A stretch of 64,000 nucleotides of DNA from Gynuella sunshinyii YC6258 (GTDB taxonomy: Bacteria; Pseudomonadota; Gammaproteobacteria; Pseudomonadales; Natronospirillaceae). The stretch lies in contig NZ_CP007142.1 in the NCBI RefSeq assembly GCF_000940805.1, positions 408,593-472,592 on the forward strand, in the 5' to 3' direction. Shown here piece by piece: positions 5,513 to 60,338 of the stretch. Position 1 is the first letter of the stretch. Every line of letters starts with the position of its first letter. Under the pieces are notes generated by a model, which ran no database searches, was not told the DNA's origin, and was given only the letters and a program-made list of their open reading frames with translations. The translations under genes were made by a program, and so were the position numbers.

Positions 5513-7633
5513 ATGAATTTCAATAACCACAAATACTTACAAACAATATTTTGCTGTGCTCTATTGGCGGCATGCAACTCAGAAAGCGATTCAGGCAAAA
5601 CCAATACTGCCGCTGCACACAGCAGCCAGGGCCCTGAAATTCAACTGACCGGCATTGAAAATATACAACTGCTGGCCGGTAGCGATTTCGTTGATCCCGG
5701 CGCCGTTGCAGAAGATGCTGAGGATGGTGATCTGACATCCAGTATTTCTGTTGATTCGAATCTTGATGTTTCCACCACAGGCAAATACGGTATTACCTAT
5801 ACAGTCGTCGATTCTGATGGTCACGAAGCAACTGTCACACGCACCATTATTGTGGCTGCAGAGTTTGACGATAACTATCATGTCAGCTGGGAAAGCAACT
5901 TTAGCCTCCCCAAACAGGATGCAGACGGCTGGTCAATCTTAATACCCTCATCCAACTCGCGACTGATCTATATTTCAACCACGAGCGGTGACGACAATAC
6001 TGCGAAGGTTTACACGCCCAAGGATAGTGTAATCGGCGGAGACTATCGTAATCCTGCCGGTACGGTTTTAGCGTATAAGACAATGGAAGCCGCTTTCGAA
6101 CAATTAAGAGCCGGAAAACCAGACTACCTGCTGTTTAAGCGCGGAGACACCTTTACTAAAACCCCCGGCTTCGATCTTGCACTTAAAGCCGGTCGTTCAG
6201 CCTCCGAACGACAGGTTCTCACCAGTTATGGACCAGCCACAGAGAGACCTGTGATCGATACCGGTACTGGTTGGGGATTAAACTTCAACAATGCTCCCTA
6301 TTCAGCTGCCGTTGGATTATATGTTGTGGCCAGTGGACGTAACCCGGACCAGGACGGTGATGGCAAGGAGGACCGTGACTTTGACTGGAATTCCATAGGT
6401 CAGGCACTGGGTTTTCGTGGTTTGGATATCGTCGGCCACATACTGATCGAAGATTGCTGGTTCGACTGGTATTCAAGCAACTATTTCCAGTCAACCGATG
6501 ATAACTCCGAGGTGATAGACATTATTTTCAGACGGAACCTGGTGACCAACAATTATGCCGCGGTATCCGGTCAGAACACGCAAGGTATGTACTCCGATAA
6601 TGTTTCATCGTTAATTGAAGAAAACATTTTCGACCACAATGGCTGGTATAAACAGGGTACCGGTAGCGATGACAAAGAAGGTCAGGCTACTTACTACAAC
6701 CACAACATTTATTTTGTAGAACCCAGGAACACGATTGTCAGGAACAATCTGTTTTTGCGTTCATCCAGTATTGGTACCAAGTTCACCTCCAACACAACAT
6801 CCGGGGACAATCAGATCAAAGCCTGGAACCTGTTGGTTGATAACAATCTTTATCTTGAAGGCGAAGTTGGTATTGGTCTGAGCGGTAACAAAGATCAGAA
6901 CAACGGACCAAGATTTCAGCAAATCTACGTAACCAATAATGTGCTGATGAATATAGGCCGAACTCAGCCGTCTAAACGGGATCTTGGCTGGGGGATGGAT
7001 CTGGCTGACTGGAAAGGCGGGCTGGTCAACGGCAACATCTTTGCACACTGGGGACAATACAACGCTCAAAACAATAACAACTATGCCATGTATATAACTG
7101 GCGAGATGTCCAATACAGAGATCAGCAACAACATTATCTATGATATCTACAGCAATCAGGTTCTGGTCAACTTCACCGGATATGACGAAATCGTATCATT
7201 TGATTTTCACCACAATGAAATCCAGGGAAAGGATGCGAACGTTCAGCGACCTGGCCGCCTGTTGCAATATTCTGTTAACAAAGGCACTGGTAATCTGGCT
7301 AATAACTACTACTACTCAGAAGTAGAGCAGGATCACTGGTTTTCCGGGCAAGGTTCTGCTTATTTGACTCTGGATCAGTATCGCAGTTACTCCGGTGACA
7401 CGACATCCATGCCTCAGTCTCGCTCTTATGATGAGCCGGAGCGTTCTATTTCAAGTTATTTGTCCTCTCTCGGGTACGCCTCAGGGTTAAATGTAGATAC
7501 GGAAATGGCAGCGTTAATCGAGTTGTTACTGGCACAACAAAAAGGTAACTGGGACACCAACATAAGTGCTACAGCAATCAACAATTATATTCGCGAAGGA
7601 TTCTGCCTCGAGGGTAACTTCAGCTGCCGCTGA
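5513..7633 (+). CDS. Lipoprotein, paralog C, with the same architecture as paralog B. It is more divergent, roughly 45-50% identical.
   Basis: Lipobox LLAACNS. Ig-like domain motif PGAVAEDAEDGDLT. Conserved EDCWFDWYS and FDHNGWYKQGTGS motifs, and a C-terminal KGNWD...AINNY region shared by all three paralogs. Confidence 0.8.
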   Translation: MNFNNHKYLQTIFCCALLAACNSESDSGKTNTAAAHSSQGPEIQLTGIENIQLLAGSDFVDPGAVAEDAEDGDLTSSISVDSNLDVSTTGKYGITYTVVDSDGHEATVTRTIIVAAEFDDNYHVSWESNFSLPKQDADGWSILIPSSNSRLIYISTTSGDDNTAKVYTPKDSVIGGDYRNPAGTVLAYKTMEAAFEQLRAGKPDYLLFKRGDTFTKTPGFDLALKAGRSASERQVLTSYGPATERPVIDTGTGWGLNFNNAPYSAAVGLYVVASGRNPDQDGDGKEDRDFDWNSIGQALGFRGLDIVGHILIEDCWFDWYSSNYFQSTDDNSEVIDIIFRRNLVTNNYAAVSGQNTQGMYSDNVSSLIEENIFDHNGWYKQGTGSDDKEGQATYYNHNIYFVEPRNTIVRNNLFLRSSSIGTKFTSNTTSGDNQIKAWNLLVDNNLYLEGEVGIGLSGNKDQNNGPRFQQIYVTNNVLMNIGRTQPSKRDLGWGMDLADWKGGLVNGNIFAHWGQYNAQNNNNYAMYITGEMSNTEISNNIIYDIYSNQVLVNFTGYDEIVSFDFHHNEIQGKDANVQRPGRLLQYSVNKGTGNLANNYYYSEVEQDHWFSGQGSAYLTLDQYRSYSGDTTSMPQSRSYDEPERSISSYLSSLGYASGLNVDTEMAALIELLLAQQKGNWDTNISATAINNYIREGFCLEGNFSCR

Positions 7634-14529: not shown

Positions 14530-15888
14530 ATGTCGCTCAAAAAAACCACTCTTGCCACGGCAGTGGCGCTGGCAGCTGCTACGGCGACTGGTGCCGTTGC
14601 CGCAGATCTGAAATTTGAAAAAGGCAAAGGCCCGTTTCATTGGGAAGATCTGAAACAATTTGAAAATATGGATCTGTCCGGAAAAACCATCAGCGTGTTT
14701 GGTCCCTGGCTGGCGCAGGACGAAGCTCTGGTAAGCTCAGTCATCGCCTATTTTGAAGATGCCACTGGCGCCAAAGTCGATTACGCAGGTTCAGACAGCT
14801 TCGAACAACAGATCGTGATCGATGTGCAGGGTGGCAGTGCTCCCAACATCGCAATTTTCCCACAACCAGGTCTCGCTTCCGATCTGGCGTCCAAAGGCTA
14901 TCTGTATCCTCTGGGCAACGACACCAAAAAGTGGATTGCAGACAATTATGCAGCGGGTCAGTCCTGGGTTGATCTGGGTACCTACAAAAACAAAGATGGC
15001 AAAAAAGAACTGTACGGTTTCTTCTACAAAGTGGATCTGAAATCTCTGGTCTGGTATTCCCCGGACAACTTTGATGAAAAAGGTTACGAAGTCCCGGAAA
15101 CCATGGAGGAGCTGCTGGCACTGTCCGATCAGATCGTCGCTGACGGTGGTACTCCATGGTGTATCGGTCTGGGTTCCGGTGGTGCAACCGGCTGGCCGGC
15201 AACTGACTGGGTTGAAGACCTGATGCTCAGAACCCAACCCCCCGGTGTTTACGACCAATGGGTAACCAACGCCATTCCGTTCAATGATCCTCGCGTTGTG
15301 AAAGCCATTGAAGCGTTCGGCGAATTTGCCAAAAATGACAAATACGTTGATGGCGGTGCCGCTGCAGTTGCAACCACCGATTTCCGTGACAGCCCAAGAG
15401 GTCTGTTTACCGTGCCGCCAAAATGCTATATGCATCGTCAGGCTTCCTTCATTCCTTCATTCTTCCCGGACGGCACACAAGTGGGTGAAGATGTCGATTT
15501 CTTCTACTTCCCGGCTTATGCCCGTAAAGACTTGGGTAAACCGGTACTCGGCGCAGGTACTCTATGGGCGATCACCAAGGATTCTCCAGAAACCCGGGTC
15601 TTCCTGGACTTCCTGAAAACCAATCTGGCCAACGAAATCTGGATGGCACAATCCGGCTTCCTGACACCGTTGAAAACCGTCAACACCGAAGCCTATGCAA
15701 CAGATACCGCCCGTAAGATGGGAGATATTCTGCTGAATGCCACGACTTTCCGCTTTGACGGTTCTGACCTGATGCCAGGCGCTATCGGCGCGGGATCTTT
15801 CTGGACCGGTATGGTTGACTACACCAGCGGTGCTTCAGCCAAATCCGTCGCTGATGCAATTCAGAAAAGCTGGAATCAGATCAAATAA
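14530..15888 (+). CDS. aglE: Alpha-glucoside ABC transporter substrate-binding protein (AglE-like)
   Basis: Sec signal peptide MSLKKTTLATAVALAAATATGAVAA, sugar SBP family-1 fold, and genomic context with GH13 enzymes and MalFG-like permeases. Confidence 0.75.
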   Translation: MSLKKTTLATAVALAAATATGAVAADLKFEKGKGPFHWEDLKQFENMDLSGKTISVFGPWLAQDEALVSSVIAYFEDATGAKVDYAGSDSFEQQIVIDVQGGSAPNIAIFPQPGLASDLASKGYLYPLGNDTKKWIADNYAAGQSWVDLGTYKNKDGKKELYGFFYKVDLKSLVWYSPDNFDEKGYEVPETMEELLALSDQIVADGGTPWCIGLGSGGATGWPATDWVEDLMLRTQPPGVYDQWVTNAIPFNDPRVVKAIEAFGEFAKNDKYVDGGAAAVATTDFRDSPRGLFTVPPKCYMHRQASFIPSFFPDGTQVGEDVDFFYFPAYARKDLGKPVLGAGTLWAITKDSPETRVFLDFLKTNLANEIWMAQSGFLTPLKTVNTEAYATDTARKMGDILLNATTFRFDGSDLMPGAIGAGSFWTGMVDYTSGASAKSVADAIQKSWNQIK

Positions 15889-15908
15889 CGGTCTGATTTC
15901 AGTCTTCA

Positions 15909-15930
15909 GGGTTCCGAGTATTCGGAACCC
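15909..15930 (+). terminator. Intra-operon hairpin between the SBP and permease genes (GGGTTCCGA-gtat-TCGGAACCC); an attenuator-type partial terminator
   Basis: Perfect 9-bp stem 20 nt after the aglE stop. The following T tract is weak. Confidence 0.4.
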
Positions 15931-15965
15931 GCATAATTCATTTCATATTTGTTAGGAGGCCGGTT

Positions 15966-16970
15966 GTGTTACAGCAACTGTTCGGTGCTGCTACCGCCAT
16001 TGTGTTGTCTGTTGGGGTTTGTGTTGCATTCTTTTATGGTGCTAACGCGTTGCTGGATTATTATGCGACCGCGTCGGGTCTTGATCATCGCAGTCGTGAC
16101 CGGCGGGAACGTGTACGCAGCATCGTGCAACCCCTGATTTTCGTAGGTCCAGCACTACTGTTACTAAGTATTTTCCTGATTTATCCGGTTATCAAAACCG
16201 TCCAGTATTCGTTTATGGATCGTGGTAGTTTCGAATGGGTCGGACTGGCCAACTACGTCTGGGCTTTCCATGACCAGGAATTTCTGCAGTCCATCGGCAA
16301 CAACATTCTCTGGTTGATCATCGTACCATCGATGAGCACCTTCCTGGGCCTGCTGATTGCCTATCTGACTGACCGTATCTGGTGGGGTCAGATTGCCAGA
16401 ACACTGATATTTCTGCCTATGGCCATTTCCTTCCTGGCGGCCAGCGTCATCTGGAAGTTCGTGTACGACTATCGCGGACCGGATTCTGAACAGATCGGTC
16501 TGTTGAATGCCTTCTGGGTTGGTTTGGGAGGGGAACCTCAAGCCTGGATTACGCTGCCATTCTGGAACAACATATTTTTGATGATCATTCTGATCTGGAT
16601 TCAGACGGGTTTTGCCATGGTCATTTTGGGAGCGGCAATGCGCGGAGTTCCGGAAGAAACTCTCGAAGCTGCACACATGGAAGGTGCCAATGAAATGCAG
16701 ATTTTTTTCAAGATCATCATTCCTCAGGTGCTGGGTACCATTCTGGTGGTCTGGACCACCATCACCATCACCGTTCTGAAAGTCTTCGATATTGTGTATG
16801 CCATGACCAATGGTCAATGGGATACAGAGGTCATTGCCAACATGATGTTCGATACCATGTTCCGTGCCGGTGATGCCGGACGAGGTAGTGCCATCGCAGT
16901 TGTGCTGATGGTGGCAGTACTGCCGATCATGTGGTGGAACATTCGCAACGTCCGCAAGGAGGAAATATGA
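15966..16970 (+). CDS. aglF: ABC sugar permease (AglF/MalF-like)
   Basis: Six or more TM helices and an EAA-type motif (EAAHMEGANEMQIFFKIIIP). Confidence 0.8.
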   Translation: MLQQLFGAATAIVLSVGVCVAFFYGANALLDYYATASGLDHRSRDRRERVRSIVQPLIFVGPALLLLSIFLIYPVIKTVQYSFMDRGSFEWVGLANYVWAFHDQEFLQSIGNNILWLIIVPSMSTFLGLLIAYLTDRIWWGQIARTLIFLPMAISFLAASVIWKFVYDYRGPDSEQIGLLNAFWVGLGGEPQAWITLPFWNNIFLMIILIWIQTGFAMVILGAAMRGVPEETLEAAHMEGANEMQIFFKIIIPQVLGTILVVWTTITITVLKVFDIVYAMTNGQWDTEVIANMMFDTMFRAGDAGRGSAIAVVLMVAVLPIMWWNIRNVRKEEI

Positions 16971-18130
16971 GCATCATGGGTGGCGGTCTACACCGCATGA
17001 CAATGGGAAAAGCGCTGAAGCATGCAACCGTGTTGTTTTTTGTGCTGATCTGGTCGGTTCCAACTCTGGGTCTGTTGATCAGCTCTGTCCGTGACAAAGA
17101 TCAACTCGCCATTTCCGGCTGGTGGACCTCTCTAAGCTCCAAAATATCCAATGATGTGGTGCGAATGGGAAGTGCCGATGACCAGCAACAGCAGGGTGAT
17201 CACTACATCATCACCGGCTCTGTTTTTGAAGGTAATAACAAGGGCACAGTCCTGACCTTTGGCTTCCGGTCTGATGAATTGGATGCCTACAAAGCCGGTG
17301 AAACGGCTGATATTGGCAAAGGCCAGACACTGCTGGTTACAGCCGCCGGGGAATATACCCTGAGCAGCAGCGAGGCATTTACCAGCTCGCGGGGCAAACG
17401 GCTGTTCTTTGTCGCCAAACACGCTCCTCGCTTCACCTTTGAAAACTACCACAAAGTGCTGACGTCCGAGGGTATCGGCCGGGCATTCGTTAACTCTGCA
17501 ACCGTTACCCTGCCGGCCACGTTCATTCCTATTCTGATTGCCGCGTTCACCGCCTATGCGCTGGCGTGGATCGACTTCAAGGGGCGTGCCACCATGCTGG
17601 CGCTGGTTGTGGGTCTGCTGGTCGTTCCGTTGCAGATGTCGCTGATTCCGGTATTACGGCTGTATAACGAAGTAGGGGGGTACTTTGGCTTTCCGGCCAA
17701 GTCATATCCGGGTATCTGGCTGGCCCATACCGCGTTCGGTCTGCCACTGGCAATTTATCTGCTGCGCAACTACATGGCCGGTCTGCCTAAGGAAATCATG
17801 GAATCCGCCCGCATGGATGGTGCCAGTCACTTTCAGATTTTCCGTACCATTGTGCTGCCACTATCCGTGCCGGCTCTGGCTTCCTTTGCCATCTTTCAAT
17901 TTCTCTGGGTCTGGAATGATCTGCTGGTTTCGCTGGTGTTTCTGGGCATCGCCGACGATAAAACGGTCATGACCGCACAGCTGAAAGAAATGCTCGGATC
18001 GCGCGGAAATAACTGGGAGCTGCTGACCAGTGGGGCCTTCATTACCATGATTGTGCCGCTGATCGTGTTCTTCTCCTTACAGCGTTTCTTTGTACGTGGA
18101 TTGCTGGCCGGTTCTGTCAAAGGCGGCTGA
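16966..18130 (+). CDS. aglG: ABC sugar permease (AglG/MalG-like) with a long periplasmic insert
   Basis: Start overlaps the aglF stop (ATGA). EAA motif ESARMDGASHFQIFRTIVLP. A roughly 150-aa periplasmic loop sits between TM1 and TM2. Confidence 0.8.
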
Positions 18131-22535: not shown

Positions 22536-25310
22536 ATGTCCAACACTCTCTATTGTCATTACCCCGATGGCCGGAAGGAAACCATCCGCCACCCTGCCAA
22601 GCCCCTTAATCAGGGCGCTGACGGCGCTATCTTTGCCAGTACTGACCGACGTTATGCGCTCAAGATCTATCACCACCCGGATAAAGATCCCCGACGTGAA
22701 CACAAACTGTGGCAGATGATCGAACACACGCCACCGGCACAGCAAGGTGTTACTTTTGCCTGGCCGCTGGCCATACTCAAAACACATCGGGGTAAATTTG
22801 TCGGCTATCTGATGCCGTTGCTGAACTTCAAACATGAGGTTCAGCTGGAACAGTTGCTTTCGGCCCGGGCTCGTCAGCAGTCCAAACTGCCGGAAAGCTA
22901 CCTGTTTCGACTGAATGCCGCCATTGAACTGGTTCGCTGTGTCGAGGCGCTCCATCGCAGTGGTCATGCCATCATCGATTTCAAACCGGTGAATGTCATG
23001 GTCAACCGTCGGACTGCCGCCATTTCAATCGTCGACTGTGATGGCTTCTTCATTCGTGGTTCACATGATCAGTTTCCCGGTCACCAGTACACCGCCGGGT
23101 ATATTGCACCGGAAGCCCATAACAACAAACTGCCGCCCGATCAACTGGATCAGGCCCAGGACCTGTTTGCTCTGGCCGTTATTGTTTTCCAACTGCTCAA
23201 TAATGGAATTCACCCGTTCCAGGGCGTTCCCAAGCCCGGAACCAAACTGCCCACGGATAACCAGGCCCGCATCAGTGCAGCGCTATATCCCTACGGTGAA
23301 CAACCGCACCCCCGGATAGGTCCATCCCCCTGGAGTCTTCATCGCCACTTTCCTGTCAACCTGCGGGGGGCATTGGAATCATCGCTGATTGGCCCCAAAA
23401 GACATTCGGCGCAGCAATGGCTGCAACTGCTGGAGACCTTGCGCGAACACATCAGTCAGTGTCAAAAAACAGCGGATCACTACTACTGGGGAGAAGAATG
23501 CCCCCATTGCCGCCAAAGCGCCGGACAAACACAACAGTTGGCAGCAACGGCCAAAGCAGCCGCCCAACGAAAACCCCGCAAGCCGACCATCAAAACCCGG
23601 CCGACCAGACACACCGCGGCTCAACCGACCCCTCCGCCAGCACCAACCGCCACGATATCTACCGGTTTTGCCTGGTTCATGATAGTCGCCGTCATACTGG
23701 TGGGTATCATTTTCTTTAACAACGATCACTCTGATGACAGCCGCTACCCAAGTCCGGATGACACCGCCGATGAGGTATTTAAAGACTCCTATTCCGAAAT
23801 GCTGATTCCCGCTTCGGATCTTAACTTTCTCATCCTTGATCCCGCTAAAACGACCACCGAGACGGTCGCTTATACGGACGATGTTGTACGCATGACCTAT
23901 GACGACGGACAACCGGACTCAATATTTTACCAGTTGCCGGAATTCAGCAGCGCCAGTGCAATACCCTACCTCAAGCGCAAGGCAATCAGCCTGAATACCA
24001 CCACCACAATGATCAGCGGCGCTTATGATATTGGTATCCGTGACTTCAACGATCACAACCGGATGCTTGGACAGAATAACAACCCGAAAAACAACATTCT
24101 CATGCTATCGGACTGGCAATATGACGAAGCCACCGCAACGTCTTACACGTATTTGTGTATCCGCCATAACGATGGCAGCGGTATTGGAGGGGCTTTGCCG
24201 ATATGCCAGCACGTGTTACAGAGCAAAACCAACGGATCAGCACGATTTGAATTTACAGAACAGCCGGACACAGATACCTCCACCGCCGCGCAGGCTGGTG
24301 GCTGGCGTTATGACCTGAGCAACAATGGTCGTTACCTGGCCATGGCCAGCAATCGAACGCTGATCGTCTACAAAACCAACAACCCCAAACAGCCACTGGT
24401 TCAGCAATTGTTGCCGGCAGATCAGCTGCAACAATCCATCAACCGCATCATCATCGATGACAGCGGTGAACAAATCTATCTGGCCCTGACAGCACCCGCC
24501 AAACCGAATGAAGCTTTTTCCGGTACCGTCCTGGAACTGCAAAAAACCGGACAGGAGTACCAGATCAGCACCGACTTCTCGACCCTGACAGACCCCAACA
24601 CCCTGTCAGGCATTGACGTTGCCATCAATGCCGATGGCACCATCATGGCCATTGGCGAATACACGGATTCGTATCTGAACACCACCGACTATACCTCTCT
24701 GGGAAGTCCTGTCGATGTCCTGGAAGGCTTTGCCAGAATCAGCCTGTGGCAACGAACCTCTGAAGGCTGGCAGCAGATCTCCACGGTCCACGAACTGAAA
24801 TCCGCGAACGTTACCATCAACGGGGAAGCGTTTTACACCGACAAACCACCCAGAGAACTGATCACCGTTCCGCAGACTATCAGTGCCTACTATTTCAGAG
24901 CATCCTGGTTTGGGGGAGGACAAGGAAGCATTCAATCCCATGCCGCCTTCAATCGTCATTTTCAGCTGAGCCGTGATGGCAAAATACTGATGTCAGGACT
25001 GACTCTAAATGGGCAGAACAACCGCCAGAACAGCACCATGACCGTCAGCACCCATCTCTACGGGATCACCGGATCTGACGTCGCGCTCGCCGCCATTGCG
25101 AAACTTGCAGTCTCCCGGCAGTACGATCAAAACTACCTGCTGGTCGATGCCCGCATGTCGAAAGACGCTGCCACGATCATTTTCAATACCACCACCAATG
25201 TCAGATCTGTCTCCCGGCAAATTCAACAAACCACGCGGTTTGATTTATTTGACTTAAATTCCCTGAGCCAACCGGAATCTGTTACCACTGACGGAGGATC
25301 AACGTATTAA
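22536..25310 (+). CDS. Ser/Thr protein kinase with a zinc-ribbon-like motif, a proline-rich linker, one TM helix and a roughly 540-aa extracytoplasmic C-terminal domain
   Basis: Kinase motifs: RYALKIY (VAIK-like), IIDFKPVNVMV (catalytic loop) and GYIAPEA (APE). Then CPHCRQ, a proline-rich PTPPPAPTA linker, the TM helix FAWFMIVAVILVGIIFF, and a long Ser/Thr/Asn-rich domain. Confidence 0.8.
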   Translation: MSNTLYCHYPDGRKETIRHPAKPLNQGADGAIFASTDRRYALKIYHHPDKDPRREHKLWQMIEHTPPAQQGVTFAWPLAILKTHRGKFVGYLMPLLNFKHEVQLEQLLSARARQQSKLPESYLFRLNAAIELVRCVEALHRSGHAIIDFKPVNVMVNRRTAAISIVDCDGFFIRGSHDQFPGHQYTAGYIAPEAHNNKLPPDQLDQAQDLFALAVIVFQLLNNGIHPFQGVPKPGTKLPTDNQARISAALYPYGEQPHPRIGPSPWSLHRHFPVNLRGALESSLIGPKRHSAQQWLQLLETLREHISQCQKTADHYYWGEECPHCRQSAGQTQQLAATAKAAAQRKPRKPTIKTRPTRHTAAQPTPPPAPTATISTGFAWFMIVAVILVGIIFFNNDHSDDSRYPSPDDTADEVFKDSYSEMLIPASDLNFLILDPAKTTTETVAYTDDVVRMTYDDGQPDSIFYQLPEFSSASAIPYLKRKAISLNTTTTMISGAYDIGIRDFNDHNRMLGQNNNPKNNILMLSDWQYDEATATSYTYLCIRHNDGSGIGGALPICQHVLQSKTNGSARFEFTEQPDTDTSTAAQAGGWRYDLSNNGRYLAMASNRTLIVYKTNNPKQPLVQQLLPADQLQQSINRIIIDDSGEQIYLALTAPAKPNEAFSGTVLELQKTGQEYQISTDFSTLTDPNTLSGIDVAINADGTIMAIGEYTDSYLNTTDYTSLGSPVDVLEGFARISLWQRTSEGWQQISTVHELKSANVTINGEAFYTDKPPRELITVPQTISAYYFRASWFGGGQGSIQSHAAFNRHFQLSRDGKILMSGLTLNGQNNRQNSTMTVSTHLYGITGSDVALAAIAKLAVSRQYDQNYLLVDARMSKDAATIIFNTTTNVRSVSRQIQQTTRFDLFDLNSLSQPESVTTDGGSTY

Positions 25311-27676: not shown

Positions 27677-28015
27677 GATTTACTCCTTTTATTAAACCTG
27701 AAACTGTCATTCCGATACGGGTGACAGATTATCTAAACCGACACATTCAACGATGTAACAGGGTATTAACAAGAACAATGCCAAGAACCAAAATAAATAT
27801 AACTATTTGATAAATAAGACATTTTTATTTTTAACTCAATCACGATCAGCCAAAATTTATCGATATCGATCAACTATGATCATTTTCGAGTGGCAACAAG
27901 CCCAATGACATCACGCCCAAAGCCGTGATTACCTGCCCAAAGACTTTGTTTCGCCACAACCACCCCCACATTAAGGGACGACCCAGGCGTATCCTCTATC
28001 CAAGGAAACAACGTA

Positions 28016-28471
28016 ATGCATGAAACCCGCACAAATATTCAGCCCTTCTCAGACAGTCAGTGGCGCACTCTCAGCCTGAGCCCGGTGATTATATTTTTAC
28101 TGGTCGCCGCCGCCGACGGACATATCGATAACCGGGAAAAGCAGCAGTTTGTGGAATTACTGAAAGAGACAGAGAAGCGCCGTTCAGACAGATTGAAAAC
28201 ACTGCTTCAGGACGTGGCCCGGCAACTGACCGATTTATTGATGGTCGTGGCCAGCGAAACATTGGATATGATTGACGTGATAACGGAAACCGTCGATCTG
28301 GTGGAACAGCATCTTGAGCCCGAAGAAGCCCTGCTCTTCAAGCAGGACCTGCTCGACTTTGCCACTGAAATTGCCCGCAGCTCAGGCGGCCTGACCAGCG
28401 GCACAATTGATCGTCACGAGCAGCAGACGCTGGACCAAATCAGTCACTATCTGCGGCTCAATCTGTCCTGA
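28016..28471 (+). CDS. TerB-like (tellurite-resistance TerB / DjlA N-terminal-like) domain protein
   Basis: Helical protein of 151 aa with the VAAADGHIDNREKQQFVELL motif that resembles the TerB family. Assignment made by eye only. Confidence 0.4.
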   Translation: MHETRTNIQPFSDSQWRTLSLSPVIIFLLVAAADGHIDNREKQQFVELLKETEKRRSDRLKTLLQDVARQLTDLLMVVASETLDMIDVITETVDLVEQHLEPEEALLFKQDLLDFATEIARSSGGLTSGTIDRHEQQTLDQISHYLRLNLS

Positions 28472-28497: not shown

Positions 28498-29139
28498 TCA
28501 GTCGCGCAATCCCCATTCGGTTTCGACATCCTCCAGATCGCCCACATACGACAAGTCCACGCATTCCAGACTGAACATGTAGCGCACGTCTTCGATCAAC
28601 TCGCGGGCATCCAGATCCAACAAATGCCCCATCACCATGCCATTGAGCTCATAGTAGCGGGGATACGGTTTACGCATGTACTGGCGAAACATCTCCAGCA
28701 CTTCGCTTCTATGAGAAGGAAATGCCATGGCTATTTCCGCCAGCGAGTTCATCGAAATCGCATAAGCAAACTGATCCTCACCCTCCCGTTGCAGATACTC
28801 AGACAAAGGATTGATGGCTGCCGGTCCGATCAATGCCATTACCTTGTCCAGTTCAGTGATGGCAAAATCATCGCCACTGAAGCGGTCAAAGTTGTTGATC
28901 AGACTGTCTATCGCAGTCTCGGCCCGAAGTTGTCCCAGGGTCCGCCAGGCATGTACCGGTGCCCAGGTGGCAGGATCTTTGGGCTCAAGAGTATCGAAAT
29001 GTTCATCGCATACGACTGCGATCAGATCGGCAATATCAGACTCATCAAACCCATACTGCTCGGGGTATTGGGGCCATGGTGTTGAAATATGAGCTTCTCC
29101 CAGCTCGATCAGAGCCTGGATTTTTGGATTAGAGTGCAT
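28498..29139 (-). CDS. Conserved hypothetical acidic helical protein (possibly DUF1186-like)
   Basis: Clean ORF of 213 aa. No motif I can assign confidently. Confidence 0.45.
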   Translation of the reverse strand: MHSNPKIQALIELGEAHISTPWPQYPEQYGFDESDIADLIAVVCDEHFDTLEPKDPATWAPVHAWRTLGQLRAETAIDSLINNFDRFSGDDFAITELDKVMALIGPAAINPLSEYLQREGEDQFAYAISMNSLAEIAMAFPSHRSEVLEMFRQYMRKPYPRYYELNGMVMGHLLDLDARELIEDVRYMFSLECVDLSYVGDLEDVETEWGLRD

Positions 29140-29219: not shown

Positions 29220-30806
29220 TCACTGCACCCGTTCAAACTTTAGATCAAACTTGGCCAGATACTGTCGCAATCGATGCGAGTCATTGGCAGAACTTTTCTT
29301 TAATCGCGAACGATTGAACAGTTTACGACCCGCCTGAGAAATATTCTGACTGTCCCGACACACCGCCACCACATGACGGAGTTGCTGCTGGTCGAACAGA
29401 TCCATATCAGCCAGTTGTTCCGGCTCCAGGATTTCTTCCAGTGCCGGTAACGAGTCATTCACCTCTGCCGGTTTCCACCAGGTCAGCAAGCGCTCACACT
29501 CCTGTTGAACCAGAGCTTCATTGATACGTCCGCCATCCGAGAGGATACTCATACGCTGAATACAGGCATTGAGATCACGAAAATTACCTGACCACAAAGC
29601 CTCAGGACTGGTGGCAAAATCGAGAAATCGCTGCCGCGCGGTCTTGTTGAAACTGACTTTGTAACCCATCTGGCTTTCCGCCTGCTGCAACTCATAATCA
29701 AGATTGGGTTCAATATCTTCACGTCGATGCCGCAAACCGGGCAATTCGTAACTCCAGAGATTGATTCGCGCCAGCAGATCCTCCCGAAAACGGCCTTCCG
29801 CCACCTGCTGTTGAAGATCCCGATTGGTGCCGGCAATCAGCTGAAAATCGCTGCTGACGGGACCATCCGCACCCACCGGATAAAACGTCTTTTCTTCAAT
29901 GGCATGCAGCAACATGGCCTGTTCATCCAATCCCAGTTCACCAATTTCATCCAGAAACAACAAACCCTGATCAGCTTTGTTCAACAAACCTTTGCGGGCA
30001 TTCTGAGCGCCGGTGAACGCTCCTTTCTTATGACCAAACAATGCCGACATGGCACTGTCACCGCGCAAAGTGGCACAGTTCACCGCCACCAGCTCCCCCT
30101 GGATCGAGCCACGCATTTTTTTGAGCTCATAAATCCGGCTGGCCAGCTGTGATTTGCCCGCACCGGTCGGCCCGGTAATCAATATCGGCGCCACCGAACG
30201 GATTGCTACCTGCTCAATCTGCTGAATCATGGCATTGAACTGGCGATTGCGGGTGGCAATGCCAGATTTCAGAAACTCAGTGCCTTCCAGTTGCCGACGC
30301 TTGAAACGGGAACTGATGGCATCGTATTTGGAGAGATCCAGATCGATGAGATGGCACTGACCTGACACTCCATTATCGCCACGCCCAGGCGAGGTTTGCA
30401 GCAACACGGCCGGAACATAGTTGGCTTCGCACAACAGAAACCAGCAGATCTGCGCCACATGGGTACCGGTGGTGATGTGCAGCAGGTAGCGCTCCTGATC
30501 CGGCTTGAACGGATAATGCTCCACGAAGTCCAGCAGGGTGCTATAGACCTGCTCAAAATCCCATGGATTCTCAAACCGCAGCTCATGCAGCTGCACTTCG
30601 GTGTCGGGCGAGACCGTCTGCACGTCCGCGCCGACATTATTGGCCAGCCGATGGTCACGCGCATCGTGAATCAGCTCCAGACGATCCACCAGCAGATCCT
30701 CCTGCATGAAGATACCGACCGTCGGCCGCCATTTATTCCAGCGCTTGACCCCTTTACCGCGGGCATCCAGTACGGTGCCCAGCAAACCAATCACAACCGT
30801 TTTCAT
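29220..30806 (-). CDS. rtcR: RtcR, sigma54-dependent transcriptional activator with an N-terminal CARF-like sensor domain
   Basis: N-terminus MKTVVIGLLGTVLDARGKGVKRWNKWRPT parallels E. coli RtcR. AAA+ sigma54-interaction domain (GPTGAGKS, GAFTGA) and a C-terminal HTH. Start placed at the Met aligned to the E. coli RtcR start. Confidence 0.85.
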   Translation of the reverse strand: MKTVVIGLLGTVLDARGKGVKRWNKWRPTVGIFMQEDLLVDRLELIHDARDHRLANNVGADVQTVSPDTEVQLHELRFENPWDFEQVYSTLLDFVEHYPFKPDQERYLLHITTGTHVAQICWFLLCEANYVPAVLLQTSPGRGDNGVSGQCHLIDLDLSKYDAISSRFKRRQLEGTEFLKSGIATRNRQFNAMIQQIEQVAIRSVAPILITGPTGAGKSQLASRIYELKKMRGSIQGELVAVNCATLRGDSAMSALFGHKKGAFTGAQNARKGLLNKADQGLLFLDEIGELGLDEQAMLLHAIEEKTFYPVGADGPVSSDFQLIAGTNRDLQQQVAEGRFREDLLARINLWSYELPGLRHRREDIEPNLDYELQQAESQMGYKVSFNKTARQRFLDFATSPEALWSGNFRDLNACIQRMSILSDGGRINEALVQQECERLLTWWKPAEVNDSLPALEEILEPEQLADMDLFDQQQLRHVVAVCRDSQNISQAGRKLFNRSRLKKSSANDSHRLRQYLAKFDLKFERVQ

Positions 30807-30951
30807 ATGATCTATTTCGATAAATGACGATAAATTTCGATCAGTATTCCTAAAGACCGGGTCGGGGTCAATGCTGTACATTTATGCAAGAAATATAAAA
30901 AATATTTTAAAAACAATGAGTTATAAATTTTTTTAATACATCAGAACAAGC

Positions 30952-30967
30952 TGGCACAGAGCTTGGA
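30952..30967 (+). promoter_or_regulatory. Candidate sigma54 (-24/-12) promoter TGGCAC-agagc-TTGGA, reading toward the tRNA-like RNA and SPFH/NTase genes
   Basis: Perfect -24 TGGCAC with correct spacing. The -12 element is TTGG rather than the consensus TTGC. Divergent from rtcR, matching the position where RtcR-activated promoters lie in enterobacteria. Confidence 0.35.
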
Positions 30968-31076
30968 ATAACAATATTGAATGTGATCACTGGCAGCGGC
31001 GCGGGTTCTGTACACCCGCCTGGCATCCCTCTCCATGAGACCGGATGTACCGACAGTATCGGACAGTACATTCACA

Positions 31077-31152
31077 CGTTTGATAGCTCATACGGTAGAG
31101 CAGTTGACTCATAATCAATGGGTAACGGGTTCGAATCCCGTTCAAACATCCA
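31077..31152 (+). ncRNA. tRNA-like RNA with a CAT (Met-type) anticodon. It has a 76-nt canonical cloverleaf with an encoded CCA, a C1·A72 mismatch and an AU-rich acceptor stem.
   Basis: Manual fold: acceptor 31077-83/31142-48 (6 of 7 pairs); D-stem GCTC/GAGC; anticodon stem GTTGA/TCAAT with loop CTCATAA; T-stem ACGGG/CCCGT with T-loop TTCGAAT. The anticodon and T arm closely resemble elongator tRNA-Met. Confidence 0.55.
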
Positions 31153-31418
31153 TGGTAAAGCCCTTCCAGGCTCAGGGTTCAAATCCCTCTTTAAATATAA
31201 ACGGGCGCAAGCCCAAAGCGGTGTGCCGCGTTTATCAGACCCGTTGTCGATAAACCCGGGCATACCCGGACCCGGGAGCTGAAATGCCAGGGGCGCTGGC
31301 TGACGCCGGTGGGGGCCAGGGATGGTCGTAGATTCAGGTGTAATCCCCACCGGCCTCAGACAGTCAACCGGCATTCCCTCCCGGCATCTGATCAATATGG
31401 ATCAAAAAAGGAGTCGTT

Positions 31419-32595: not shown

Positions 32596-33363
32596 ATGGA
32601 ACAGAGAATCCTTGCAACGTTGGAGCGGATCGAATGGGAATACGGCGTGGATATCCTCTACGCCTGCGAATCCGGCAGTCGCGCCTGGGGCTTTGTCTCA
32701 CCGAACAGCGACTACGATGTCCGCTTCATCTATGTGCATCCACTGGATCACTATTTATCGGTGGGCAGGCAGCGGGATGTGATTGAAGAACCGATTATCG
32801 ATGATCTCGACATCAACGGCTGGGATCTGCGCAAGGCCCTCGGGCTGATGCGCGGCAGTAATCCCAGTCTGCTGGAGTGGCTGCATTCGCCGGTGGTGTA
32901 CCACAGTCGTGAGTGGTTTGAATACGAGCTGCGGGAACTGGCATTGCAAAGCCTGGATCGCCGGGCGTTGTTTCACCACTATCGCTCAATGGCCGGCAAT
33001 GACTGGCGAAAAGTACGCAAAGCCGACCGGGAAGTTCCCCTGAAGCGCTACTTTTACATGCTGCGCACCGCGCTGTGCGCGCTTTGGGTGATGGACCCTG
33101 ACAAACCGGCGATGCCACCGGTGGCATTCGCAGAACTACTGGCGCAAACAGACATGGATGCGGTCGTTCGGGCGACGATCGGGGAGCTGCAAACACTCAA
33201 GGCCAGTCTGGCCGAGAAATGCTCGATCCCCCGAGTCGTGGTGCTGGACGACTTTCTCGCCGATGCGTTTGCCCGTATGGATGCGGCCAGTCCGGAGAAA
33301 AGAGCGCCGATGCCACTGGCACCATTCGATCAACTGCTGATCAACACCGTAAGGGCGGCCTGA
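32596..33363 (+). CDS. Pol-beta-superfamily nucleotidyltransferase (the RNA-repair-associated NTase family)
   Basis: ESGSRAWGFVSPNSDYDVRFIY matches the hG[GS]...[DE]h[DE]h NTase signature. Length 255 aa. Lies 13 nt downstream of the SPFH gene. Confidence 0.65.
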   Translation: MEQRILATLERIEWEYGVDILYACESGSRAWGFVSPNSDYDVRFIYVHPLDHYLSVGRQRDVIEEPIIDDLDINGWDLRKALGLMRGSNPSLLEWLHSPVVYHSREWFEYELRELALQSLDRRALFHHYRSMAGNDWRKVRKADREVPLKRYFYMLRTALCALWVMDPDKPAMPPVAFAELLAQTDMDAVVRATIGELQTLKASLAEKCSIPRVVVLDDFLADAFARMDAASPEKRAPMPLAPFDQLLINTVRAA

Positions 33364-33376
33364 CCGCCCTTTTTTT
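33353..33376 (+). terminator. Rho-independent terminator GGGCGG-cctga-CCGCCC-TTTTTTT, with the stop codon in the loop
   Basis: 6-bp GC stem followed by a 7-T tract immediately at the end of the NTase gene. Confidence 0.8.
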
Positions 33377-58609: not shown

Positions 58610-59225
58610 ACAACAGTCCTCATTTCGTTATTGTAATAATCTCCGGCGACTACTCGATCAGGGGAAACCGGCACTGCTTATATTTAGTCTATTTATACCT
58701 ACAATGCCACTCAGGAAGCACATTGTTTTCTGCGGCAGATCAATGAGTTTGAAAATAAAGAGTTGTCATTGTTTTGGCCAGTATAAAAATGTATCCGTCT
58801 TTTGGGAGCCGTCTATTGTTTCAGCAGAATCAACTCAGATCTTCAGATCGATCGATAACTTAAAAGCATAGTCTGATGTTAATCATATCCCTGTCTGTCA
58901 TCTGATCGTCATCTGCAAAATAGTTGTTATCGTATTTACATATGTAGTCTGAAAACGGCTCAGACAACAGGTTTGAGAAGTGACACAAATCAGGTTGTGA
59001 CCGTTTCAAGCCTGAATTTTCCAGTCTGATCCAATTGCCTGTTTATGACCTATATGACACCAGTAACGACATTTGCTGTTACTTTTGTTATGGGAGTTTC
59101 ACTTTACAACGACACCGCTGTTACTATCCTGTCATATTTTTGCAAGATAATCTTCCTGGACATTCCGTATTTGGAACAGAACACCTTATCTGGTCCTGAT
59201 GATACTCATAATAAGAGGAGTCACC

Positions 59226-60338
59226 ATGAAAGTATCTCGACGCCAATTTGTGAAAGGTTCTCTTGCGGCCGGTATCGCCGCAACTTCTCCGTTTTACCTA
59301 AACCGTGCGCTGGCCGCATCCAAGGAACTACGTATTTATGCCTGGGCCGGTTATATCACTGATGAAATGCTCAAGGACTTCAAAGCCAAGACCGGTATCA
59401 ATGCCACGTTCACGCCTTATGGCACGAATGATGAGTTGATGAATTCTCTGCGCGCCACCGATGGAACGGGTTTTGACATTATCATGCCAACCGTTGACCG
59501 GGTTCCCGGTTACCTGGATTTCAATCTGATTCAACCACTGGATACCACCCGTATTAACTGGAACGGCTGTCTGGACAGCGCCATGAGCGGCTCGGAAGTC
59601 GGTGGTGTCATTGATGGCAAACGCTATTTTGCCCCATCGGATTGGGGTACTGAGGCCATTTGCTACAACACAGAAGAAGCCAGAGTTGACCCTAAAAACC
59701 TGAGTTATGGTGATTTGTGGAAACCTGAACACAATGGTGGCGTAACGGTTCGCGGCCATTCTGCACTTGTAGGTATCGGTCTTTGGCTTGAACAGCAGGG
59801 AAAATTACCGTTTCCATTGCTGGACTCTTATAAAAACGAAAAAGCCATGCGCGCCAACTTTGACGTCATTCTGAAAGCTGCAGTGGAACACAAGGGCATG
59901 ATTGCGCAATTCTGGTCAACCGAAAATGAAGCCCAGGGCGCATTTCGCACCAATGGCGCCATCATCGGCCAGACCTGGGACAGCACCGCGTTCAAACTGC
60001 AATCCGAAGGCGAACCCATCGCCTACGGGGCCCCCAAAGAAGGCGCACTGGCATGGATGGAAGGCTTTGTGATTCCTAAAAATGCCAATAATGTTGATGC
60101 AGTCTATGAATTCATAAACTGGTATTACACGCCCGAAGCCGGTGCCATGTTCGTGAAATCCACCGGATACAACTCAACATCAAAAGGTGCCGAGGCACTG
60201 TTACCAGAATCCACGAAAAAATTCTTTAGCAGCTCTTATTCTGAAAAAGATCTCGCCAATCTTTGGTGGTGGCCAATCCAGGAGCCCTGGTACGTTGCTT
60301 TACGTAACGAGTATCAGGATCGCTTTCTGTCTGCCTGA
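59226..60338 (+). CDS. ABC transporter substrate-binding protein, PotD/PotF family, with a Tat signal
   Basis: SRRQFVKGSLAAGIAATSPFYLNRALA twin-arginine leader. AGGAG RBS. SBP family-1 fold. Confidence 0.75.
   Translation: MKVSRRQFVKGSLAAGIAATSPFYLNRALAASKELRIYAWAGYITDEMLKDFKAKTGINATFTPYGTNDELMNSLRATDGTGFDIIMPTVDRVPGYLDFNLIQPLDTTRINWNGCLDSAMSGSEVGGVIDGKRYFAPSDWGTEAICYNTEEARVDPKNLSYGDLWKPEHNGGVTVRGHSALVGIGLWLEQQGKLPFPLLDSYKNEKAMRANFDVILKAAVEHKGMIAQFWSTENEAQGAFRTNGAIIGQTWDSTAFKLQSEGEPIAYGAPKEGALAWMEGFVIPKNANNVDAVYEFINWYYTPEAGAMFVKSTGYNSTSKGAEALLPESTKKFFSSSYSEKDLANLWWWPIQEPWYVALRNEYQDRFLSA

Follow-up and report, generated by a model that had tools for sequence, protein, structure and literature searches.

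Genes and predicted RNA elements around rtcR

We analysed a 64-kb window of the Gynuella sunshinyii YC6258 genome in which rtcR separates rtcBA from a divergent cassette composed of a tRNA-like element, an SPFH/Band-7 gene and rlaP (Table 1). The encoded RtcR consists of a CARF-type RtcR domain, a sigma-54 AAA+ domain and a C-terminal region, with the GAFTGA motif (residue 262) and Walker A intact. Its gene lies adjacent to the putative cassette promoter described below, as expected of a cognate activator, and no rpoN gene was seen within the 64-kb window. Two unrelated genes, one TerB-like (+) and one DUF1186-like (-), lie between rtcR and the downstream rtcBA. The predicted cassette unit, which runs from the tRNA-like element through SPFH and RlaP to the terminator-like hairpin, includes neither rtcB nor rtcA in this window. 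RlaP extends damaged RNA 3' ends by 1-2 nt and contributes to restoring the function of repaired tRNAs (bioRxiv 10.64898/2025.12.29.696909).

Table 1. Genes, promoter elements and RNA features of the locus, with positions counted from the first nucleotide of the window.
Feature	Position	Strand	Details
rtcA	26451-25453	-	Pfam RTC 4.4e-73
rtcB	27676-26459	-	Pfam RtcB 6e-133
Second candidate sigma-54 -24/-12 core, upstream of rtcB	27764..27783	-	TGGCAT-TGTTC-TTGTTAATA; predicted start ~27757
IHF consensus TATCAAATAGTTA	27800..27812	-	Perfect match to WATCAANNNNTTR; starts -29
Candidate RtcR UAS of the rtcB promoter	27843..27883	-	Core TGATCGATATCGATAA at 27872-27857, starts -89
rtcR	29220..30806	-	Pfam RtcR 1.1e-82, Sigma54_activat 4.6e-50; identical to WP_044615568.1
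Candidate RtcR UAS of the cassette promoter	30808..30843	+	Core palindrome TGATCTATTTCGATAA at 30808-30823, then GATAA-ATTTC-GATCA
Sigma-70-like rtcR promoter	30843..30871	-	TTGACC-17-AATACT; -10/start region overlaps the UAS
IHF-like site	30911..30923	+	AAACAATGAGTTA, 1 mismatch to WATCAANNNNTTR; starts -41 relative to TGGCAC
Candidate sigma-54 -24/-12 core, cassette promoter	30952..30970	+	TGGCAC-AGAGC-TTGGAATA; orthologous position in 47/47 rtcR-linked loci
Predicted transcription start	30978..30979	+	12-13 nt downstream of -12 (30966)
Structured leader / non-coding RNA	30979..31418	+	7-genome alignment, alifold, inverted repeat
b7a-tRNA (band-7-associated tRNA-like element)	31077..31152	+	Rfam tRNA 62.2 bits; ARAGORN
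SPFH/Band-7 (slipin), 387 aa	31419..32582	+	Pfam Band_7 2.3e-27; RBS AAGGAG; identical to G. sunshinyii WP_044615569.1
RlaP (PF10127), Pol-beta-type nucleotidyltransferase	32596..33363	+	Pfam RlaP 5.8e-80; 13 nt past the SPFH stop
Intrinsic terminator-like hairpin and T-run	33351..33371	+	Likely end of the cassette transcript

The region upstream of the SPFH gene appears to encode a structured leader RNA. Counting from 30966 as -12 puts the predicted start of the cassette transcript at about 30978-30979. Across seven aligned genomes, representing five genera, conservation is weak between -12 and the predicted +1 and becomes strong from GAATGTG (30979) through the leader. The first six nucleotides, GAAUGU, pair with ACAUUC at 31066-31071 and close a 5' domain (30979-31071), a stem in which Marinobacter (L088) carries a compensatory change from U-A to C-G. 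This domain is followed by a tRNA-like cloverleaf, two hairpins that resemble half a tRNA and include a T-arm (~31159-31188), and a further, long hairpin (31296-31363). At E<=1, Rfam matched only tRNA over the leader. Identification of the leader as a Y RNA was rejected, as it had no Rfam Y RNA match.

The cloverleaf reads CAU at its "anticodon", has mismatched C1xA72 and U as the discriminator, and encodes CCA (31150-31152). It lies 267 nt upstream of the SPFH gene, in the same orientation and in an RtcB/RlaP neighbourhood, and can thus be placed in the class of band-7-associated tRNAs that Burroughs & Aravind 2016, as presented in bioRxiv 10.1101/312249, predicted and named b7a-tRNA. Most related loci carry a tRNA-like element approximately 280-450 nt upstream of the SPFH gene; the anticodons vary or are aberrant, and the elements sometimes form a tandem pair.

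Candidate promoter elements upstream of the cassette and of rtcB

The candidate cassette core lies in the 612-bp gap between rtcR and the SPFH gene, 145 bp from the rtcR ATG. It consists of TGGCAC (30952-30957), the spacer AGAGC (30958-30962), TTGG (30963-30966) and an A at 30967 that begins a downstream AATA. The GG of the -24 box occupies 30953-30954 (-25/-24), the spacing from this GG to the -12 position is canonical (12 nt), and both T(-14) and the G at 30965 (-13) are present. The sole departure from TGGCAC-N5-TTGC is a G in place of C at 30966 (-12), exactly as the initial annotation had described for 30952-30967: a perfect -24 box, correct spacing and only the -12 C replaced. The C at -12 is among the most conserved positions of sigma-54 promoters. 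Gynuella sp. L081 has the identical 19-nt core but several substitutions in the flanking spacers. No sigma-70-like promoter was found on the + strand of the gap.

We evaluated the strength of the motif against chance in two ways. Searching the window for TGGCACN5TTGC with at most one mismatch recovered 10 matches, compared with 6.45 +/- 2.6 in shuffled sequences. Independently, we built a position weight matrix (PWM) from 28 intergenic, experimentally supported Salmonella sigma-54 sites (Samuels et al. 2013, PMC3844500, Table 3), excluding rsr. Within the window, the cassette site ranked 4 with 11.4 bits and a site upstream of rtcB ranked 8 with 10.2 bits, both under the weakest training site (16.3 bits), and random 64-kb sequences contain approximately 4.9 and 8.3 matches, respectively, at or above these two scores. 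The PWM scan, which had been suggested as a check, therefore does not separate the cassette site from chance by motif alone, and the cassette motif by itself is not significantly above chance. The label "near-consensus" in the initial annotation is therefore generous. The largest cost in that score is the -12 G, because G is absent among 29 Salmonella sites (C 25, T 3 in pspA, pspG and hydN, A 1, G 0; PMC3844500, Table 3). Since the consensus search and the Salmonella PWM both return chance-level matches, the promoter call rests on context rather than on motif strength; approximately 0.02 such matches are expected by chance on the right strand of the 612-bp gap.

Several other matches in the window were taken as chance occurrences. 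The one-mismatch matches at 17577-17591(-) and 17811-17825(-) lie antisense inside an ORF (16931-18130), and the top PWM matches, 22971(-) and 59420(+), are intragenic.

The initial annotation had suggested looking for an inverted repeat 80-150 bp upstream as an upstream activating sequence (UAS), and such a repeat is indeed present. The candidate cassette UAS adjoins the rtcR start codon (CAT, 30804-30806), and its palindrome TGATC-N6-GATAA starts at -144. The more general pattern TKATC-N6-GATAA occurs twice in the 64 kb, with 0.22 occurrences expected, once upstream of each sigma-54-like site and in the same relative orientation. These window-wide counts, like those for the extended core, are post hoc, because the patterns were partly derived from the same sequences. 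In the clade of the window, the UAS core starts between -144 and -156 in five of the seven genomes, and the remaining two are unmatched. Similarly, distant loci, those of Pseudomonas among them, have T[G/T]ATC-N6-GATAA directly beside the rtcR ATG (for example TTATCCAAAAAGATAA). Between the palindrome and the core lies an AT-rich tract that contains the IHF-like site, and the corresponding position (-41/-42) is occupied in five relatives (L081, L082, L085, L087 and L088). The cassette promoter thus has the enhancer architecture of the sigma-54 class, an upstream palindrome and an intervening IHF-like site, both at conserved positions. A UAS and an IHF site have been reported for the rtc promoter of E. 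coli, PrtcBA (PMC9650030), and we found no RtcR operator sequence in the accessible literature. On the opposite strand, the -35 box of the sigma-70-like rtcR promoter (GGTCAA on +) is conserved in L081, L082, L085 and L086; given the overlap of this promoter with the UAS, rtcR may be autoregulated.

A second candidate promoter of the same design was found upstream of rtcB. Its core comprises TGGCAT (27783-27778), TGTTC and TTGT (27772-27769) on the - strand, followed by TAATA. The initial annotation had already noted TGGCAT-N5-TTGT here, at about 27771-27786; the sequence is as it described, and the exact position, 27783-27769, differs by a few bases. This site departs from TGGCAC-N5-TTGC at two positions, compared with one at the cassette. 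The initial annotation could not find an equally good element upstream of rtcB; on the Salmonella PWM, the scores of the two sites are essentially equal. We also trained a family PWM on the orthologous divergent-promoter sites, excluding the window and L081. The cassette site scored 20.7 bits (family range 12.3-28.9) and the rtcB site only 5.4 bits, because its (A/T)ATA extension is 1 nt out of register; we judge this low score to be a limitation of the matrix and not evidence against the site. The perfect IHF consensus in front of rtcB is one of 6 matches in the window (2.9 expected). A MAFFT alignment paired the cassette TGGCAC with a different sequence, TGTCAC-N5-TCGG (~27733), which was rejected: it has no GG at -24, and what the relatives keep is the TGGCAT at 27783.

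The layout upstream of rtcB is shared by related genomes. TGGCA[C/T]-N5-TTG[T/A/G] is found upstream of the rtcB unit in all six relatives (L081, L082 and L085-L088), 45-107 bp away. The UAS core is kept at -89/-90 in four of the six, namely Gynuella sp., Hahella ganghwensis, Pokkaliibacter and Marinobacter (L081, L086, L087 and L088), and an IHF-like site at -29 in five. The split gene order, with rtcA-rtcB co-directional with and downstream of rtcR and SPFH-RlaP divergent, is found in Gynuella sp., L082, two Hahella species, Pokkaliibacter (in whose locus rtcA was not called) and Marinobacter zhejiangensis. Because the UAS, the IHF site and the -24/-12 layout are conserved while the distance to the first gene varies, rtcBA appears to have its own promoter, through which RtcR most likely controls these genes in cis. 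The initial annotation had raised the possibility that rtcBA is regulated from a weaker site or in trans; the conserved layout, with its own candidate UAS and a perfect IHF consensus, does not support this.

Orthologous sites in rtcR-linked loci

We compared the locus with 80 loci carrying SPFH relatives (among the matches listed, 40-47% identity), 8 closer relatives and the E. coli K-12 rtc region. The pattern TGGCA[C/T]-N5-TnG[C/A/G](A/T)ATA was present in all 47 rtcR-linked loci examined (among the matches listed), including E. coli K-12, with a distance to the rtcR start codon of 134-180 bp in 45 of these 47. Five bases of the -24 box (T, G, G, C, A) and the -13 G never vary among the 47 loci examined. 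This orthology, together with the UAS repeat, supports the earlier reading that the element points away from rtcR and at the tRNA-like/SPFH/RlaP cassette.

The -12 base is considerably more variable: 35 of the 47 orthologous sites examined have C, and A and G account for 6 each. The non-C cases fall in the clade of the window (Gynuella, L082-L084, Hahella and Marinobacter zhejiangensis) and also in Pseudoalteromonas and Catenovulum. L082 also has the exact cassette variant, TTGGAATA, and Pseudoalteromonas luteoviolacea L042 has it independently; a TTGA variant is found in Hahella, Marinobacter, Pseudoalteromonas and Catenovulum. Overall, loss of the -12 C (as TTGG, TTGT or TTGA) is typical of the clade, where 13 of the 14 promoters in seven genomes are without it; these genomes are non-independent samples. 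The absence of the -12 C across the clade at both promoters is mildly unusual, as are the duplication of a whole promoter module and the predicted transcription of a CCA-ended tRNA mimic as the first product.

Gene order in the relatives bears on the origin of the cassette promoter. Among the matches listed, rtcR is divergent from (tRNA-like)-SPFH in 27 distant loci, with rtcB next in nearly all and rlaP and rtcA often present; in 10 loci, the unit divergent from rtcR is rtcB-rtcA, and SPFH comes farther downstream. Because relatives place SPFH first in an rtcR-divergent operon with rtcB, rlaP and rtcA, the cassette promoter can be viewed as the ancestral rtc operon promoter. Hence the cassette has no special status as the primary target of RtcR, contrary to the possibility that the initial annotation had raised. 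In relatives without a nearby rtcR, the b7a-tRNA/SPFH module is usually without a sigma-54-like site.

A probable split of the RtcR regulon

The element at 30952-30970 is very probably the core of an RtcR-dependent sigma-54 promoter, an orthologue of PrtcBA and Prsr, and rtcBA would have a second such promoter. The cassette promoter appears to be the expected RtcR/sigma-54 promoter in the expected place, now serving only the b7a-tRNA/SPFH/RlaP half of a split regulon. We infer the likely mechanism from the anatomy of the locus and the established behaviour of bEBP/sigma-54 activators. E-sigma54 would form a closed complex on TGGCAC-N5-TTGG, and RtcR would bind the palindromic UAS (T[G/T]ATC-N6-GATAA and the neighbouring repeat, 30808-30843) beside its own start codon, with the AT-rich spacer bent by IHF at 30911-30923. 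Once the CARF domain is relieved, RtcR hexamers would open the complex with ATP. The transcript, predicted to start at or close to 30979, would carry the structured leader with the tRNA mimic, then SPFH/slipin and RlaP, and end at 33351-33371. In this clade, rtcBA would have moved downstream of rtcR, where a second full promoter with this architecture precedes them, and one regulator would therefore fire two units in cis. In Salmonella, RtcR is activated by tRNA fragments with 2',3'-cyclic phosphate ends (PMC7790460, PMC10159003).

Several known systems offer close parallels. PrtcBA of E. coli (Genschik et al. 1998; Kotta-Loizou et al. 2022, PMC9650030) is likewise divergent from rtcR. Its core, TGGCACGACGGTTGCAATTA, lies approximately 137 bp from the rtcR ATG, GATA-rich repeats adjoin the ATG as at the cassette, and its IHF site, AAACAATGAATTA, has an equivalent place and nearly the same sequence as the cassette IHF-like site. 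However, PrtcBA has TTGC and a short leader and drives rtcBA directly, whereas the Gynuella promoter has TTGG and precedes a tRNA-like leader, SPFH and RlaP, with rtcBA separate. Prsr of Salmonella Typhimurium (TGGCACGCTGGTTGCAAT; rsr-yrlBA-rtcBA; Samuels 2013, PMC3844500; Hughes 2020, PMC7790460) is also an RtcR/sigma-54 promoter, and its operon similarly starts with an RNA-binding-protein module and non-coding RNAs that mimic tRNA, followed by the repair enzymes. There the module consists of Ro60 (Rsr) and the Y RNAs YrlA/YrlB within one operon, whereas the Gynuella locus has no Ro and no Rfam Y RNA match and instead carries SPFH, b7a-tRNA and RlaP with two promoters. The Band-7/b7a-tRNA/RlaP-type RtcB systems of Burroughs & Aravind 2016 show the same linkage of a tRNA-like element and Band-7 to RtcB, RlaP and RtcR; the account of them in bioRxiv 10.1101/312249 deals with gene neighbourhoods and describes no promoter, UAS or two-unit split. 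Finally, the sigma-54 promoters of pspA and pspG are functional with TTGT at -12 (PMC3844500, Table 3) and have an IHF site between UAS and core; they differ in that their activator is PspF and that they are unrelated to RNA repair, and no reference promoter has a -12 G.

Other readings of the locus are less well supported. One, which we consider rather unlikely, accepts that both promoters work and regards the loss of the -12 C as adaptive: a weaker fork-junction lock would permit leaky basal expression of the tRNA mimic and the repair enzymes, priming an RtcA/RtcB-dependent loop. Mutations at -12 reportedly raise unactivated transcription, and the near-complete loss in the clade recurs in Alteromonadales. 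Basal RtcA also suffices to start operon activation in Salmonella (PMC7790460). Nevertheless, the argument is purely inferential, a non-C at -12 also lowers sigma-54 binding, and neutral drift offset by the conserved (A/T)ATA extension could produce the same pattern among non-independent genomes. More speculative, and clearly unlikely, is a reading in which the Rtc regulon of the Gynuella/Hahella/Pokkaliibacter/Marinobacter clade has been rewired around two promoters, nearly all without the -12 C, and the ancestral promoter first yields, in place of an mRNA leader, a stable structured RNA of approximately 100-400 nt with a CCA-ended tRNA mimic. If the anticodon nucleases or stress RNases that damage tRNAs also cut this mimic, its fragments with 2',3'-cyclic phosphates would signal back to the CARF domain of RtcR. 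The RNA would then form a decoy or sensor loop that amplifies itself, and the relaxed -12 element would provide the basal level for arming it.

It is also very unlikely that RtcR acts mainly or only at the cassette, with rtcBA relying for expression on read-through, control in trans or a far weaker site arising by chance. The second consensus departure of the rtcB site and its lower scores with both matrices would be in line with such an arrangement, but UAS, IHF site and core are held at fixed positions (-89 and -29) in the four relatives named above, and both TGGCAT and TTGT are known from proven promoters, pspA and pspG among them (PMC3844500). An opposite-strand gene (28016-28471, +) intervenes between rtcR and rtcBA, which makes read-through in the window unlikely. 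The least probable reading, highly improbable in our assessment, is that the cassette element is decayed or a chance match whose -12 G abolishes sigma-54 function, with the RNA, SPFH and RlaP expressed from a sigma-70- or tRNA-type promoter: the chance-level motif and the absence of -12 G from the Salmonella set are compatible with it, and the b7a-tRNA/SPFH module may be expressible by other means, because relatives without a nearby rtcR usually do without the site, but the element keeps its orthologous position in every rtcR-linked locus examined, its core is invariant between two Gynuella genomes whose flanks have changed, TTGGAATA recurs in L082 and P. luteoviolacea and TTGA in four genera, the gap showed no sigma-70-like site on the + strand, and RNA conservation begins at the predicted +1.

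The preferred reading, of two RtcR-dependent sigma-54 promoters serving a split regulon, provides a testable regulatory map for a non-model Rtc system, comprising the two promoters, a likely RtcR operator (T[G/T]ATC-N6-GATAA), the IHF sites and the predicted starts. Given that no operator sequence was found in the accessible literature, the palindrome could be useful for predicting targets of RtcR in further genomes. The map would also place the predicted b7a-tRNA as the first product of an RtcR-activated promoter, which bears on the sensing of damaged tRNA fragments by RtcR.

Leaders and promoters around rtcR

Both predicted sigma-54 transcripts of the Gynuella locus, that of the cassette divergent from rtcR (tRNA-like element, SPFH, RlaP) and that of rtcB, carry GAATGTG at or near their start (30979-30985 on the plus strand and 27748-27742 on the minus strand, respectively). 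GAATGT(A/G)TC is present in both leaders of the relative L082. The shared sequence may be the remnant of a promoter-module duplication, or it may be a common 5' leader motif.

The -10 and start region of the sigma-70-like rtcR promoter lies inside the candidate upstream activating sequence of RtcR, and its -35 box is conserved in relatives. Together, these features suggest that rtcR is autoregulated.

Elsewhere in the window, the two top-scoring matches to the matrix built from Salmonella sigma-54 sites were found at 22971 (minus strand, 15.5 bits), antisense within the 924-aa ORF, and at 59420 (plus strand, 13.9 bits), in the sense orientation within the ORF at 59199-60338. These are probably chance or intragenic sites.

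Features of the window and of related loci
Feature	Position	Strand	Remark
Band-7-associated tRNA-like element (b7a-tRNA), window copy	31077-31152		C1xA72 mismatch; encoded CCA
Sigma-70-like rtcR promoter, TTGACC-17-AATACT	30843-30871	-	-10 and start region inside candidate RtcR UAS
TerB-like gene	28016-28471	+	between rtcR and rtcB promoter
DUF1186-like gene	28498-29139	-	between rtcR and rtcB promoter
924-aa ORF	22536-25310	+	adjoins rtcA; weak protein-kinase domain match only
tRNA gene array, 19 genes	L001 3881-7623		precedes b7a-tRNA/SPFH module
tRNA gene array, 25 genes	L061 3533-7670		precedes b7a-tRNA/SPFH module
Family-type sigma-54-like site TGGCACCGCTCTTGAAATA, good match	L089 (Oleiphilus messinensis) 7447-7465		557 bp upstream of SPFH
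Type III CRISPR Cas10/Cmr2 gene	L087 (Pokkaliibacter) 15164-17161		~6 kb from RtcR/SPFH/RlaP locus

The tRNA-like element and its modules away from rtcR

In most related loci, the b7a-tRNA lies about 280-450 nt upstream of SPFH. Its "anticodon" varies between genomes, with Met, Cys, Ser, Lys, Arg, Leu, Ile or Thr readings; many copies have abnormal loops, and some genomes, such as those with the Pseudomonas loci, encode a tandem pair.

Where rtcR is not nearby, long arrays of ordinary-looking tRNA genes occur upstream of the b7a-tRNA/SPFH(/RtcB/RlaP) module, as in the two tabulated loci and in L024, L010, L027, L028, L038 and L050. Most of these array loci lack a sigma-54-like site upstream of SPFH. 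In the Oleiphilus messinensis locus, which has a family-type site, the tRNA-like element is kept and rtcR is absent within 8 kb; the upstream side is instead taken up by RHS and ankyrin genes.

Gene neighborhoods of rtcR and rtcB

The TerB-like and DUF1186-like genes separate rtcR from the rtcB promoter in Gynuella only; in Pokkaliibacter and Marinobacter, rtcB lies ~150 bp downstream of rtcR. The rtcB unit opens with a small zf_Tbcl gene in Hahella and L082. The Cas10/Cmr2 gene near the Pokkaliibacter locus is of possible interest, since RtcR has a CARF domain.
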